Source: Octopus vulgaris (lineage: Eukaryota). Taken from it: 64,000 bases of DNA. Positions 2,436 to 52,662 of this stretch are shown one piece after another. The notes beneath the pieces were generated by a model, which did no database searches, was not told the origin of the DNA, and worked only from the letters and a program-made list of their open reading frames with translations. Each line of letters opens with the position of its first letter. Position 1 is the stretch's first letter. Position numbers and translations under genes: made by a program. The DNA is taken from positions 9,300,001-9,364,000 of the forward strand of contig OX597829.1 of NCBI GenBank assembly GCA_951406725.2, read 5' to 3'.

Positions 2436-3444
2436 TATATAGATGTATATGTATATATATGTGTGTGGTGGAGAATTAAATATATGCAGAAGGAATTTTA
2501 ATATAATGGTGTATCTAGTGTTACTATATAGTTGATGATTTATCAGAACAGTTAATGAAAAAGTTATGTAGAATATACCAGATAGAAAAATTAGACATAG
2601 AAATTATGAAGTATAGCAATTCTATTCTGGAGTATTGCGTAATTGATATAAAAGTTTAGTAATGGTTAAAAAATTATTAGCAGAAAAAATATTCAAAAAT
2701 ATTATTAATAGAAAAATAATCAAAAAAATTATTAATAGAAAAATAATCAAAAAAATTATTAATAGAAAAATAATCAAAACTTGTTTATAGAAAAATAATC
2801 AAAATAAATATTAAAATAAAAATAATCAAAAAAATTTTAATAGAAAAATAATCTAAAAAATTATTAATAGAAAAATAATCAAAACTTTTTAATAGAAAAA
2901 TGATCAAAAAAAATATTAAAATAAAAATAATCAAATAATTTTAATAGAAAAATAATCTAAAAAATTATTAATAGAAAAATAATCCAAAAAATTATTAATA
3001 GAAGAATAATCAAAAAACTATATTAATAGTAAATTAATCAAAAAAACTATATTAATAATAAATTAATCAAAAAAATTCTTAACAGAGAAATAATCAAAAG
3101 ATTTTTATTTGAAAAATATATTTAAAAATTATTAATAGAAGAATAAAGAAAAAAATTATAAATAAAAGAATAATAAAAAATTTTTAATAGAAAAATATTC
3201 AAAAAAATTATTAATAGAAAAATAAATCAAAAAAATTATGAAAGAAAAATAATCTAAAAAATTATTAATAGAAAGATAATCAAAACATTTTAATAGAAAA
3301 ATAATAAAAAAAATATTAATAGAAAATTCATAAAAAAATTTTTAATAGAAAAATGATCTAAAACATTTTTAATAGAAAGATAATCTAAACAGTTATTAAC
3401 ACAAAAATAATAATAAAAATGTTCATAGAAGAATAATCAAAAAA

Positions 3445-3775
3445 TTACGGAGATATATTTGCATAGCAAGTGACCTGATCTGAGATTGTGTGCTGGAGCG
3501 AAAACAATTGCAGCGTGGAAGGTGTTTATAAGCAATTTAAGAAACACGTTAAAACTGTTAGATTCATTTCAACATTTAAATTTAATTTGTCAAAATATTT
3601 TCGTCGCTTTCAGACCGCGACCTGTTCACTGACAAAATTCCGTCTGAAAGCGACGAAAATATTTTGACAAATTGAATTTAAATGTTGAAGTGAATCTAAC
3701 GGTTTTTGTGTGTTTCTTAAATGGCTTATAAACACCTTCCACGCTGCAATAATAAACACCTTCCACGCTGCAATA
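3445..3775. mobile_element. Palindromic pseudo-LTR-like element (inverted arms ~3506-3615 / ~3642-3750, terminal ~23-bp duplication)
   Basis: attgcagcgtggaaggtgtttataag... mirrored by ...cttataaacaccttccacgctgcaat; ataaacaccttccacgctgcaat repeated twice at right end. Confidence 0.8.
3586..3636 (-). ncRNA. Minimal type I hammerhead ribozyme, G3-C8 core variant
   Basis: Minus strand uuuguca-GUGAACA-g-gucgc(ggucugaaa)gcgac-GAAA-auau-UU-ugacaaa: 7-bp stem I, 5-bp stem II, palindromic stem III. Confidence 0.7.
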
Positions 3776-3920
3776 AAAAAAACTATTAATAGAAAAATAA
3801 ACAAAAAAATTATTCATAAAAAAATAATCAAAAAGATTATTAATAAAAAAAATAATCTAAAAAGCATTAATAGAAAAATAATCAAAACAATTACTTACTT
3901 TACTTACTTACTTTTTACTT

Positions 3921-4313: not shown

Positions 4314-4859
4314 ACTCATTAATAAAAAAATAAATAAATATTATTAATAGAAAAATAATTTTAAAAATTATCATTAAAAAGGTAATCAAAAAAATTTTAT
4401 AGAAAAATAATCCAAAAAATTATTAATAGAAAAATTATAAAAAAATTATAATAGAAAAATAATCAAAAAAATTATAAGTAGATAATAATAGAAAAAATTA
4501 TTAATAGAAAAATAATATTAAAATTTTTAATAGAAAAAAATACAAAAAATTATCAATAGAAAAATAAATAAAAAAAATTTTAATAGAAAAGTAATCCAAA
4601 AAATTATTAATAGAAAAATAATTCAAAAATTATTAATAGAAGAAAAATGAAAAAATTATTAATTGAAAAATAATCAAAAAAATTATTAAGAGAAGAATAA
4701 TGAAAAAAATTATCAGTAGAAAAATGATTAAAAAAAATTTAATAAAAAAATAATACAAAACATTTTAATAGAAAAATAATCCCAAAAATTATTAATAGAA
4801 AAATAATCAAAAAAATTTTTAATAGAAGAATAAAAAATTATTAATACAAAAATAATCAA

Positions 4860-5412: not shown

Positions 5413-5952
5413 AGATATAGATATAGATATACATATCGATATATATATATATATATATATATGATGGTGATTGTCTACTCCTTATTCAGTGTTTGACCAG
5501 CTCTTCTACCTACACATTAGGTCTCTCATGGCGTCTGATGTGGCTTTTTATACCAGAAAATGTTTTAAAAAGACACCCACATTGTTATTGCCTATCTGCT
5601 TTGGACCATCGCATTGACAGGTATGCACAGATAGTTTTCAACTAGCAATAACCACGCCTCGGATTTACCTCATTGGCCAGATAGATAGATAGACAGAGTA
5701 CCTAGTGGAGGTTCTTTTATCACGGGTCCTCAAATGAGATTGAGGCCCAGCAAAAGAAGGCATATATATATATACACACTCACACGCATATATAAATGTA
5801 TACATACACACAAATTCAAAGACATATATGTGTGTGTGTATATATACAGTTATAGTATATCTGTAAAGAATGTAGTAGAATACAGTATAAAGCTCGTCCA
5901 TCTTCAGGTTTGCGTTTGAGCACCTGACGTGTGTGAATAAATAATACGCACG

Positions 5953-24139: not shown

Positions 24140-24509
24140 ACATCATTATGTTTTCGTTGAGAAGTGTAGAGAAGAGTTCCAGATAAGGGTAGGTAATAAG
24201 TGATTTCTTCCGGTGTATATATATATATATAAACCAGCTTAGAGAAGAAGAAGAAACGAAACGAAACGAGACGAATCGAATCGAATCGACGCGAGGGCGC
24301 TCAGTCATACAATAGTGTAATAAATAAAATATATGCATACATACAAACATATATGTACGTACCTACATCTACATGTATATATACATGCATATATAAATAT
24401 ATATACGTGTGTACAGGACACCACAAATAGACGAAAACGTAAAAACAGCATGGAACGGACCATTTTTTAACAACGAAAAAACAGAGTACAGGACACCTAC
24501 ACAAGGTAA

Positions 24510-24606
24510 AATCCCCTTCATCAGCTGTCCCTAGTTCAACTCCAGCGTGTTTCGAAGGTGAGGACAGAACACGTCTCGTCGAACTAGTCCTTCCTGCGAA
24601 AGAATT
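24510..24606 (-). ncRNA. Candidate non-circularly permuted hammerhead ribozyme, family 1 copy A
   Basis: AAUUCUUU cgcag GAAGG a CUAGUUCGAC gaga CGUGU U CUGUCC uca CCUUC GAA ACACG cugga GUUGAACUAG GGACAG CUGAUGA AGGGGAUU. Confidence 0.7.
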
Positions 24607-25281
24607 AAATAAAATTCCTTTGCAGAGGGGTAAAAACAAGGAAAAAATGTGACAGAAACAGGACGTAAAAACAATACAATTAAAAACAAATACAAAATAA
24701 ACATACAATTACAAAAAATACAGTACAAGAAGGAATAGAAACAGGACAGGAAAACAAATAATGAGGGCCTATAAGCCTAGACCAGGAAAAAATTTTCACG
24801 AGCGCAGGAAGAAAAATGTTTACTTGAAGAAGGCCGCCAGCGAAAGGAAGTTCGTCCACCCGGCTGTGAGAGAGATGAGGAGGAGTGAGAGAGAGAGCGA
24901 GATAGAGAGGAACGACGCCAAAGAGGGTGAAAGAAAGAGAGAAGAAGGAGTTATAGAATTTCGCGTCATAATTATATATAAAAAAACAGCTTAGAGAAGA
25001 AGAAGAAACGAAACGAAACGAGACGAATCGAATCGAATCGACGCGAGGGCGCTCAGTCATACAATAGTGTGATAATAAAATATATGCATACATAAAAACA
25101 TATATGTACGTACCTACATCTACATGTAATATACATGCATATATAAATATATATATACGTGTGTACAGGACACCACAAATAGACGTAGAACTCAACGAGA
25201 AACGAAAAAGTAAAAACAGCATGGAACGGACCATTTTTTTTAACAACGAAAAACAGAGTGCAAGACAACTACACAAGGAAA

Positions 25282-25370
25282 AATCCTCTTCATCAGCTGT
25301 CCCTAGTTCAACTCCAGCGTGTTTCGAAGGTGAGGACAGAACACGTCTCGTCGAACTACCCCTTCCTGCG

Positions 25371-25373
<3 letters not shown>
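25282..25373 (-). ncRNA. Candidate non-circularly permuted hammerhead, family 1 copy B (5' closing strand truncated)
   Basis: Same core, stems I, II and III as 24510-24606. Confidence 0.65.
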
Positions 25374-25441
<68 letters not shown>

Positions 25442-25999: not shown

Positions 26000-26066
26000 A
26001 GTTTGTGTACATATAAATTCGAACGGAAGCGCAACGAAGAAGCAAGTGGAGAATTCACACAACGCT

Positions 26067-26151
26067 GCTGATTCCTCGTCAGTTATCGCCCCAGGGTCCT
26101 TACAATTTCATGCCTTCATCGATAATATTGTTCACATTTGGTGGCGTCAGC
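26067..26151 (-). ncRNA. Candidate non-circularly permuted hammerhead, family 3
   Basis: GCUG ACGCC a cca aauguga ACAAU A UUAUCG augaa GGCAU GAA AUUGU aaggaccc ugg gg CGAUAA CUGACGA ggaau CAGC. Confidence 0.6.
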
Positions 26152-26280
26152 GATGAGAAGCTACTGGGTATAGCGAACCTATATATATATATATATTAAT
26201 AATAATAATATGACAACAAAAGAATGAATAAGACCTCGATATTACGTAAATAAAGGAATTTATCTATAAAAATAATATTC

Positions 26281-26411
26281 GACAATTAGTTGTTTGTCAT
26301 AATAAAACTCAGAGTTTCGGATACCGGGGCTGAAGTTTTCTCCATCATCTCATCAGACTTCAGCCCGGCATTCGAAACTCTGAGTTTTATTACGACAACC
26401 AACTAATAGTC
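26281..26411. mobile_element. Palindromic pseudo-LTR fragment with truncated type I hammerhead on the minus strand (26300-26356)
   Basis: Arms 26281-26335 / 26357-26411; minus strand CUGAUGA-gaugaugg...ccgguaucc-GAAA-cucugag-UU. Confidence 0.65.
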
Positions 26412-36573: not shown

Positions 36574-37202
36574 CAAGAAATTTTGTATGCATAGCACATG
36601 GAACTTCAGAAGGGTCTGCACATAACCATCTGTCATTTCTTCTGTTAACTTTTTTATCTTGGTCGAAGTATTTCTCGTTTGAGAAAAACCAAATCAAATC
36701 TTCTTCTGCTGGATTTTTCAATTTATTTAAGAGCCTTTTAGATCTGATATAGTGATTTTCTTTTGCTTTTTCTGACCAATTGACCTTTCCTCATCATATA
36801 AGACTTATATCTGATGTGTCCGTGGACAACATTTCTTACTGTTCTTTCTGACAAATGGAGAGCTTTTGCAATTGATCCCATAGACTTTCTGGGATTGTAA
36901 TTAAGGGTCTGTTGAATTTGCTGGATAAATTCAGGTGTTCTGATGATTTCAGACTGTTTAGACTGCTTTTTATGCTCTGATACTGGTGATACCTTTCCAT
37001 CTTTGTAGACGAAAGATCTGGCAACTTTAAATAATCGAGATATTTCTAAATCGCTATGCTCGGCCTGTATAACCACAATAACAGCATGCCTCTTCATTTC
37101 TTGAGTAAGCTGAGGGGTCTGAAACAAAGGCTTTACAGAGTTAGCAAAAGATGCAGCAATGACCCCCAAAAAGGTATGTCTTCAAATACCTTACGCACAC
37201 TG

Positions 37203-40403: not shown

Positions 40404-40498
40404 AGTTTTCTCTCCTCAGTCGAGTTCCAGATTATCTTTGCAATTTCGGCTGGTTATACTCGAGATTGCTCCAATCTAGTCAGCTCCAAGGCAAAACT
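40404..40498 (-). ncRNA. Candidate non-circularly permuted hammerhead, family 2
   Basis: AGUUUU gccuugga GCUG a CUAGAUU gga GCAAU C UCGAGU auaac CAGC c GAA AUUGC aaagau AAUCUGG a ACUCGA CUGAGGA gag AAAACU. Confidence 0.68.
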
Positions 40499-41030
40499 AA
40501 GCCAAGACCATTAGATTCCTTGGAAGAAATCAGTGAACGTATTTGAAAACAAGGACAGAAAAAAAACGGAGACACGGTACACAAATACAAATGCAAATAA
40601 CAGGACATAACAACAGGTGTCTTTCGACTAAGAACGAATTGAATTAAGTTGGCGTGTATGAAAATGAAGCCTTATGGCAGGGACATAAGAGTTGACAGGT
40701 ATGGGGAGGAATATAGATGTTGCAGAGATGGTAGTCGAACCAAGAAAGAAAGGTCAGGCTTGGCTGAACACTGGTCACGTGGGGAGAGAGAAGAGAGATA
40801 AAATCATTAATGATTTTACCAGGGGTTCAGCGCGGAAATGAAATTTTACGAATATTTTAATAATTATATAAATAATTATAACGAGATATTGGTTGTAAGC
40901 GTCTCCACGAGCTGGAAAAATAGACGCCAAAAGCCGGTATTACCACCTTAAAAACTCCGAAAATAAATATTTCTACGAGTGTGTATGTATATTTGCTGTA
41001 CGATGATACTGTTCGTAAATACTATGAAAG

Positions 41031-41821: not shown

Positions 41822-42837
41822 AAGGTTTGAAAATGCAATTTAAACGATGTTTATTTACTTAACCGGTTTCACTCTTTGGTAAAAGATTGTCAAAAGTTAC
41901 ATTTAAGGAAACATTGAATAATATGGGTTCAAAAAAAGTTTTTTACATAATTGTCACATTGAATATTATGCATTCAAAAAGTTTTTTACATAATTGTCAC
42001 ATTGGATATTATGGGTTCATATATGTGGGTGCGTTGTGTGTGGGTGTGTGTGTTCTGTGTGTGTGTGTGTTGTTTGTATGTGGTTTGTGTTTGTATACTA
42101 TGTGTGTGTGTGTGTGTGTATTTGTGTGTGTGTGTGTTTGTGTGTATATATATGTGTGTGACAAACAGACGCTGTCTGACCAGCAGGCACGGACACATCT
42201 ATTCACACTTGTGCATACTAACCTCTCTGATAACCCCAAAATCATTCATGCATAAAGGGGAAGTATACACCACATTGGCTACTTCTGTTCTCTCAGTTCA
42301 GCCTTTCTGCTAATACTGACAGGTCAGTAAAAACATACTTAAAATATTCTGAGATGGACAAAAAATCCATTTTAATTTTTGCTGTCAAAACGCTGTATAT
42401 ATATACCAAAGATTGTATATATATACATGTAATGTGACAATTTGCGACAACCAATAATTAACGCAACCAATTCCCAATAATATATTTGTTTTATCCTTTT
42501 CTGCCAAATTTTCCCAAATAATGTGACAATTATGTATAAAAAAACATTTTTGAATTCATAATATCCAATGTGACAATTATGTAAAACTTTTTTGAATGCA
42601 TAATATTCAATATGACAATTATGTAAAAAACTTTTTTGAACCATAATATCCAATGTGACAATTATGTAAAAAACGTTTTTTTGAATGCATAATATTCAAT
42701 GTGACAATTATGTAAAAAACTTTTTTGAACCCATATTATTCAATGTTTCCTTAAATGTAACATTTTGACAATCTTTTACCAAAGAGTGAAACCGGTTAAG
42801 TAAATAAACATCGTTTAAATTGCATTTTCAAACCTTT
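41822..42837. mobile_element. Inverted pseudo-LTR pair (41822-~42020 / ~42520-42837) containing ~44-bp tandem subrepeats
   Basis: aaaggtttgaaaatgcaatttaaacgatg... mirrored by ...catcgtttaaattgcattttcaaacctttt; unit tgtgacaattatgtaaaaaacttttttgaa... Confidence 0.8.
41857..41897 (-). ncRNA. Minimal type I hammerhead, U3-A8 variant (mirror copy on + strand at ~42760-42801)
   Basis: acuu-UUGACAA-ucuuu(uacc)aaaga-gu-GAAA-ccgg-UU-aagu. Confidence 0.6.
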
Positions 42838-52266: not shown

Positions 52267-52564
52267 TCTCTGGCCCGCTCGATTCACCTTTTGTTAAATG
52301 CATCAGGATATTCTCCTAGCGTTGACTATTTCTGTCTACAATGTGGTCCTAAGGCCTTATTTTGTTCGTCTATCTATATCAGTTCGTTTCTACGCTCACA
52401 GTCCCGTTTCTTTCCTTTGCCATCCTTCACACATCCACTACTTGTCTCGTTTTCGATTACATTTATTCCACGTTTGTATGTTAACTGTCTGTATCGCATT
52501 CTTGTCTGTTTGTACATGTCTTGTCTTATTTCTTGCTTTTTGGCTCTCTAATTCCTAGCGGCAT

Positions 52565-52662
52565 TTGCCGCCGGCGGCGCCACCAGTAGAGTATTTAGTA
52601 TTATCGGTTAGGCACGAAATTACGGTTGACCCACTAGACGATAACTGATGAGAATTTGGTAA
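52565..52662 (+). ncRNA. Candidate non-circularly permuted hammerhead, family 3-related
   Basis: UUGCCG ccggcg GCGCC a ccaguag aguauu UAGU A UUAUCG guua GGCAC GAA AUUA cgguugac ccacuag a CGAUAA CUGAUGA gaauu UGGUAA. Confidence 0.6.

Follow-up and report, generated by a model that had tools for sequence, protein, structure and literature searches.

The closest described relatives of the structure reported here are the permuted hammerheads of Eckert et al. (2023, PMC10085705), who defined three sequence blocks of the ribozyme, S, G and C, as uninterruptible and recovered the types SGC and CSG, the latter known from two sequences, in metatranscriptomes and metagenomes; the accessible text of that paper places none of them in the genome of a known organism. 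Where the accessible text of Perreault et al. (2011, PMC3088659) treats insertions into hammerheads, these amount to one or two bases rather than helices. Among mobile elements, the Naiads of Craig et al. (2021, PMC8557442) are described as lacking a canonical hammerhead, having (TA)n targets and carrying a 'half core' in eight cases.

The window analysed here is a 64,000-nt stretch of the Octopus vulgaris genome (contig OX597829.1). About 26 kb into it lies what we read, with a probability of roughly three in four, as a worn and likely impaired copy of a predicted self-cleaving hammerhead of S-G-C order, in which a four-way junction is predicted to interrupt the core, carried by a non-coding repeat likely mobilised by Naiad Penelope-like retroelements. 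The parts of this copy, in order along the minus strand, are the following.

26020–26180, minus strand: 5'-truncated fragment of repeat family A, 160 nt, a non-coding dispersed repeat
26167–26174, minus strand: helix IV, 5' strand, partner of 26075–26067; A26169 is a mismatch private to this copy
26148–26166, minus strand: hairpin V, adjoining helices IV and II with zero linker
26143–26147, minus strand: helix II, 5' strand, a piece of block C moved to the 5' end
26135–26141, minus strand: helix P, 5' strand, the predicted stem I–II interaction helix; three of its seven pairs are broken in this copy
26132–26134, minus strand: predicted kink-turn, non-bulged strand, between P and III
26120–26131, minus strand: block S, comprising helix III 3' strand (26131–26127), H17 (A26126) and a helix I strand (26125–26120)
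Between 26126 and 26125, minus strand: predicted cut, after H17
26102–26114, minus strand: block G, comprising helix II 3' strand (26114–26110, with A26111 mismatched), GAAA (26109–26106) and a helix III strand (26106–26102)
26096–26101, minus strand: predicted kink-turn, strand with the 3-nt bulge and tandem G-A
26090–26095, minus strand: helix P, 3' strand, departing from the family majority by three substitutions and one deletion
26076–26088, minus strand: block C, first half, comprising a helix I strand (26088–26083) and the core CUGACGA (26082–26076)
26067–26075, minus strand: helix IV, 3' strand, directly 3' of A9, with a bulged base at 26070

The family A fragment begins 6 nt ahead of helix IV, after a (TA)n run, and its 3' limit lies near the usual 3' end of the family; the (TA)n/(CA)n flanks are the microsatellite bounds that the first-pass annotation had reported. 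That annotation had also recognised a permuted hammerhead, and its catalytic part is confirmed on the minus strand: the core, the NUH site AUA at 26128–26126, helix I with 6/6 pairs, helix III with 5/5 and helix II, given as ACGCC/GGCAU with one mismatch, with 4/5 (26147–26143 with 26114–26110). The fold as a whole is wider than the proposed range of 26151–26067, extending over 26174–26067. An aged copy had been suspected, and the sequence bears this out: against the family A majority it has 14 substitutions and one deletion across 117 nt, and 5 of its 32 pairs are broken (one in II, at the second pair from the junction, one in IV and three in P). This divergence of 12% from the majority is typical of the family (0.80–0.96 identity). 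The helix that had been called a weak helix V is indeed weak at this locus, but it is the decayed form of a 7-bp family helix, our P. The idea that the mismatches in II and in this weak helix are the consensus state fails, the family majority having 5 bp in II and, depending on count, 6–7 bp in P.

What distinguishes the fold from other hammerheads is the path of the strand through the core. Homologues share six helices (I, II, III, IV, V and P) and the block order S-G-C, and the CUGANGA segment runs into helix IV, then hairpin V and then helix II, not directly into II. Helix IV is formed by the bases directly 3' of CUGANGA with those directly 5' of V; it follows A9 in all family lines, the 5' strand of II lying some 65–85 nt upstream of A9, and none of the lines joins A9 covalently to that strand, as the hammerhead class does. 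The joins from A9 to IV, from IV to V, from V to II and from II to G12 have zero nucleotides. Helix P links the far ends of II and I, in the manner of the stem I–II interaction of hammerheads, and is paired in 43 of 48 cells across the eight family lines described below; the other class features, the core CUGANGA, the GAAA and the NUH site, are kept in 8/8. Hammerhead position 10.1–11.1 is typically G-C. The junction pair of II is G-C in seven of the eight lines and A-U in one, and that of IV takes all four Watson-Crick forms; because the junction pair of II keeps the form typical of 10.1–11.1, helix II probably sits on the A9-G12 pair of the core, the stacking of an ordinary hammerhead, with IV stacked on V. 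We found no precedent for a break between A9 and N10.1, which may lower or abolish activity.

In a kink-turn two helices flank a 3-nt bulge and the tandem G-A and A-G pairs that come after it. The letters between P and III predict such an element clearly in families A, D and E; the pattern is shifted by one pair in lines B1, B2 and C2 and is not clear in C and F. Among 31 copies of family A the four G/A letters are kept 24–30 times and the third bulge base varies; the 26 kb copy retains the kink-turn letters.

Family A is old and dispersed. A comparison of 26020–26180 with the 2.8-Gb genome gave at least 40 matches, 71–84% identical (the best 40 of 230 candidates were scored), and a family A 19-mer has 60 exact matches. 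The majority line, from an alignment of 30 loci, shows all six helices with zero linkers. Pairing and covariation were assessed on 25 of these loci, five (L009, L014, L016, L021 and L027) being left out on account of truncation or indels. Pairing is present in 85.9% of 943 cells, against 28–48% for slid partners, and 1 of 500 shuffles attained the covariation score; the number of pairs that change on both sides, attained by 77 of 500, is unremarkable. The covariation evidence inside this old family is thus modest. Among the 63 full-length copies of the family one, L010, has no broken pair but an extra base beside the site. In a single A unit examined for ATG-started frames the longest has 94 codons, and an ORF scan of the flanks gave, among the matches listed, only microsatellite frames and unrelated repeats.

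The fold was also compared across families, for which the window itself offers further copies.

24513–24630, minus strand: family C copy, same fold, 24/24 scored pairs
24220–25375, minus strand: young family C element in partial tandem, its two ribozyme cores spaced by 772 nt
40407–40529, minus strand: family D copy, same fold
52550–52660, plus strand: family B copy, the closest relative of family A, with the same helix I sequence

The strand order that the first-pass annotation saw as common to 26, 24.5 and 40.4 kb is indeed shared by these copies, and extends to 25.3 kb, where the second, 5'-truncated family C copy lies (core 25296–25290, period 772). The kinship with the 52.6 kb copy suggested there also stands, as does the status of a separate family, which the genome homologues and the cross-family lines support. 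The family C copy at 24630–24513 is the best assay candidate. In the genome the best 40 of 204 candidates were scored for family B, the best 40 of 2141 for C (96–98% identical) and the best 40 of 661 for D. Subfamily C2 (L210–L221), with 110 exact matches, differs from C by compensatory changes in I and P; family E is represented by 231 exact matches to a 22-mer of the Naiad_Ovul end, and F by a single copy related to D and of the same fold (L178, G000:C20:5483695-5486722).

Eight lines were built from 30 A, 8 B1, 10 B2, 30 C, 12 C2, 30 D, 12 of 20 E and 1 F loci. The B lines use 18 of 30 B loci, truncated ones being dropped, and only after division into subfamilies could family B be annotated automatically. 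With zero nucleotides at the joins, 234 of 248 cells are paired, a figure that leans high since the cross-family registers were chosen by script to maximise pairing under the assumed topology, and a two-sided change is seen in 30 of 31 columns. Exchanging strands between groups that are unrelated leaves 671 of 1426 cells paired. By helix, the lines pair in 48/48 cells for I and in 39/40 and 38/40 for the two other stems that flank the core. We regard the fold as well supported by this comparison of families A–F. A simple descriptor, consisting of I 6/6 and III 5/5 only in S-G-C order, matches the 64-kb window four times (cores at 40419, 26082, 25296 and 24524) and matched once in 150 dinucleotide shuffles of the window on both strands, a shuffle that does not preserve the microsatellite layout.

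Rfam hammerhead models gave no match at E up to 10 in 26010–26410 or 24440–24700, and over the whole window no hammerhead appeared among the best 150 of 265 matches, which were mostly microsatellite-driven microRNA matches. Several other features of the window may be recorded alongside. Adjoining the locus, 26290–26395 is an inverted repeat of about 100 nt with CUGAUGA at 26356–26350 (minus strand), and each arm has a short stem started by GAAA. Its appearance is that of fragments of a minimal hammerhead of Penelope type set head to head, though without an Rfam hammerhead match. A U4 snRNA-like match at 5550–5690 (minus strand; 36.5 bits, under the gathering score of 46) is probably a pseudogene. 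An AT-rich minisatellite with a unit of 26–27 nt forms three arrays (2668–3444, 3772–3893 and 4318–4859), and two arrays of a 42–43-nt unit lie in opposite orientation at 41911–42019 and 42520–42746, possibly as DNA transposon ends. The open frame at 36741–37181 (minus strand) has a weak helix-turn-helix match (HTH_23, E 0.00017, below cut-off) and is perhaps a transposase fragment.

Does an RNA of this shape cut itself? The most serious competing view, unlikely in our estimate, is that the fold is under selection but does not cut or is stacked otherwise: it would be a signal for protein binding or reverse transcription at the element's 3' end, or helix IV would stack on the core. Kink-turns are a known protein-binding motif, which counts in favour of the first of these roles. 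The family E motif, moreover, has the ORF on one side and the 3' end on the other, which a cut would sever from each other, and 54 of 60 E copies extend beyond the site. The points at which copies start bear on this question from both sides. In family C, starts were mapped for 80 of 394 matches, picked in listing order by a 29-mer downstream of the site, and their best change point lies at -1 from the predicted cut: 26/80 starts fall in the 23 nt after the cut against 4/54 in the 23 nt before it (Fisher p 0.0006), or 0.016 against 0.002 per nt. This step fits templates with a ribozyme-made 5' end; it could also arise from an enzyme stalling on the structure. Family A has no step at the predicted cut (19/60 vs 10/41, p 0.5), nor does family E (6/60 vs 4/54, p 0.75), which speaks for a fold that does not cut; the copy boundaries of A are old, AT-rich and blurred. 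Assembled contigs of public sequencing runs gave no start or end sites at the motif, and short contigs from two other organisms' runs match part of it at 90–95%, none spanning it. What tells against a non-cutting role, besides the step in C, is that the catalytic letters and the NUH site persist in all eight lines despite unrelated helix sequences, that the purine-pyrimidine form of the junction pair is kept by II and not by IV, and that other Naiads, examined by eye, have other ribozyme-like motifs at the same place. We retain a predicted self-cleaving hammerhead as the preferred reading of the fold.

It is a separate matter whether the 26 kb copy itself still cuts, in which case it may act on a host transcript. 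Its core, site and helices I and III are intact, in a family whose core is kept in only 29 of 63 full-length copies (among 79 distinct copies), and its kink-turn letters survive as well. The damage lies in helices II, IV and P; in type SGC, breaking helix II or the interaction helix stopped cleavage, according to the accessible text of Eckert et al. (2023, PMC10085705), and the 26 kb copy is therefore probably impaired as a ribozyme. Structure prediction for this copy gives a fold without IV, V and II (z 0.19); for the family A copy L002 all three are predicted. With a divergence no different from the rest of its family, continued activity of this copy appears improbable, more so than a non-cutting role for the fold. 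The copy is probably a fossil, whose value is as covariation evidence for the fold, and since it spans the predicted cut site it must derive from an uncut or re-joined template.

The wiring originally proposed for the locus differs from ours. In that scheme GCUG pairs with a strand five bases after the core (helix IV, GCUG/CAGC), II is joined to the core by this single helix, and hairpin V is absent. The pairing does form 4/4 in the 26 kb copy, is possible with G-U in A, B1 and B2, and is paired in 77% of A cells, much as hairpin V is (76%). It rests, however, on C26070, which is private to the 26 kb copy, the family majority having U. In the fold preferred here GCUG is the 3' arm of the hairpin 26166–26148, and the strand following CUGACGA pairs with 26174–26167, outside the range then given. 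A comparison of homologues, which the first-pass annotation had itself put forward as a check, finds II, P and the core pairing conserved and the proposed helix without covariation (345 of 500 shuffles score as high). In the same register that helix makes 0–2 of 4 pairs in C, C2, D, E and F, five of the eight lines, whereas IV and V form in all, and five unpaired bases separate the proposed helix from A9. Such a pairing may compete with the preferred fold in families A and B alone; as the general wiring it is very improbable. Least credible of all is chance pairing in an AT-rich repeat or a box C/D snoRNA remnant, to which a weak SNORD49 match over the motif might point (26053–26126, minus strand; 16.7 bits, E 0.13, 14-nt identity around the core), but that score is far under the gathering score of 37 and is taken as chance, and the descriptor counts and cross-family pairing argue against both.

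What could move a repeat with such a predicted hammerhead? The first-pass annotation gave no host; we place the system with Penelope-like, Naiad-type retroelements. The published Naiad_Ovul and Naiad_Obim sequences end with family E of the fold, and of 30 loci matched by a C-terminal peptide of the Naiad RT, 16 have a family E ribozyme 0.4–1.3 kb downstream on the same strand; families A–D were found downstream of none of the 30. Searched the other way, with 14 Naiad RT peptides that leave out the endonuclease part, no peptide lies within 1.5 kb of any of 95 A loci, and the corresponding counts for Naiad peptides are 0/30 for B, 0/72 for C and 0/30 for D. The identity of these peptides comes from comparison by eye with the printed Naiad_Ovul sequence; Pfam, a Protein Data Bank sequence search, one protein-database search and a word search of the supplement gave them no name. 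The arrangement of an autonomous Naiad, with a GIY-YIG/RT ORF upstream of the 3' end, is thus seen in E and not in A.

The layout of the repeats is nevertheless that of Naiads, with (TA)n targets, partial tandems and inverted truncated copies. Partial tandems have units of 640–810 nt (periods of 638–725 in A, 745–781 in C and 727–809 in D); family A has same-strand pairs at L002 (725) and L209 (638). Inverted pairs lie at L005/L022, L196 and L266/L267, and inverted copies adjoin microsatellites. Families A–D look like non-coding, retrozyme-like dependants, and Naiads likely mobilise them. The link of A to Naiads rests on the shared fold, target and layout, because no Naiad peptide lies within 1.5 kb of its loci, and family A is at most a non-autonomous dependant.

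Outside the octopus genome the fold was read by eye, not computed, in the last 330–400 nt of 48 Naiad sequences, eight of which show it: three from Acropora, Morbakka-2, Clytia-3, one from Pomphorhynchus and two from Octopus, hosts that comprise corals, a box jellyfish, a hydrozoan, an acanthocephalan and octopus. The Morbakka and Clytia folds have one extra base at the junction. Other Naiad ends, also read by eye, take different forms. Six nematode Naiads end in type-CSG-like hammerheads, Morbakka-1 and several bivalve Naiads appear twister-like, hemichordate and oyster Naiads HDV-like, and in spiders and ostracods the core at the Naiad end is arranged in other ways. It may be that one ribozyme class can replace another at this single position of Naiads.

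We envisage the following course of events for a functional unit. Helix P would hold stems I and II together, and the kink-turn would bend P away from III; the RNA would be cut after H17 (26126 in the 26 kb copy), reducing tandem or read-through transcripts to unit length. Some unit-length RNAs might be re-joined into circles, which a Naiad enzyme would copy into (TA)n sites. More broadly, we think it probable, if a little less so than our reading of the 26 kb locus, that animals possess an active natural hammerhead opened inside block C and closed again through a perfect four-way junction, that this is the ribozyme hitherto missed in many Naiads from corals to octopus, and that it drives the retrozyme-like repeats of about 700 nt and provides the first non-circularly permuted ribozymes placed in eukaryotic genomes. 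If true, this would break the rule that the three hammerhead blocks cannot be interrupted and add a fourth opening of the pseudoknotted hammerhead circle. Non-circular permutations, known from rare environmental contigs, would gain a place in abundant animal repeats; it would become clear why descriptor searches saw nothing more than 'half cores' in Naiads, and whether a 3' ribozyme is required by Penelope-like elements would again have to be asked. We found no description of the fold in the literature, including the accessible text of Forgia (2023, PMC10162972) and of PMC13725137; subscription journals and the supplements of Eckert et al. and of the bioRxiv study cited below could hold one.

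Set against known systems, the octopus fold shares the conserved core letters and stems I, II and III with the canonical hammerheads of types I–III as given in Rfam and in the accessible text of Perreault et al. (2011, PMC3088659), but it has no three-way junction in linear order and, as noted, escapes the Rfam models. With the metazoan non-LTR retrozymes, as described in the accessible texts of Cervera and de la Pena (2020, PMC7229834) and bioRxiv 10.64898/2026.07.22.740005, the repeats have in common non-coding tandem units with one hammerhead each and a tie to Penelope-like elements. Those retrozymes, however, carry type I hammerheads in tandem units of 150–450 bp and their circles have been shown, whereas the octopus units measure about 640–810 nt, their ribozyme is permuted and circles are only proposed. 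The Naiads in the accessible text of Craig et al. (2021, PMC8557442) agree with our repeats in targets, partial tandems and inverted truncated copies, and Naiad_Ovul, marked there as HHR_half_core, is one of the two that end with family E; family A differs in having no ORF or linked RT within 1.5 kb.

The nearest system remains the type SGC/CSG hammerhead (HRIMA-1 and a variant), with which, going by the accessible text of Eckert et al. (2023, PMC10085705), the fold shares the core letters, the NUH site and the order S-G-CUGANGA. A helix joins the far ends of stems I and II in both, and the linker from stem I to stem II has 2–5 nt here and typically 3 there. The differences are that the octopus fold resides in an animal genome, where its copies number hundreds to thousands, that it contains a predicted kink-turn, and above all that its block C is split, whereas Eckert et al. 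assume at most one or two inserted bases between CUGANGA and the stems. The block order is thus that of type SGC, but block C is interrupted and the ends of the molecule lie in helix IV, inside C, and not between C and S. The topology is that of the SGC/CSG circle opened within block C, and the fold would work like a type-SGC hammerhead and yet fall outside the definition of that type.
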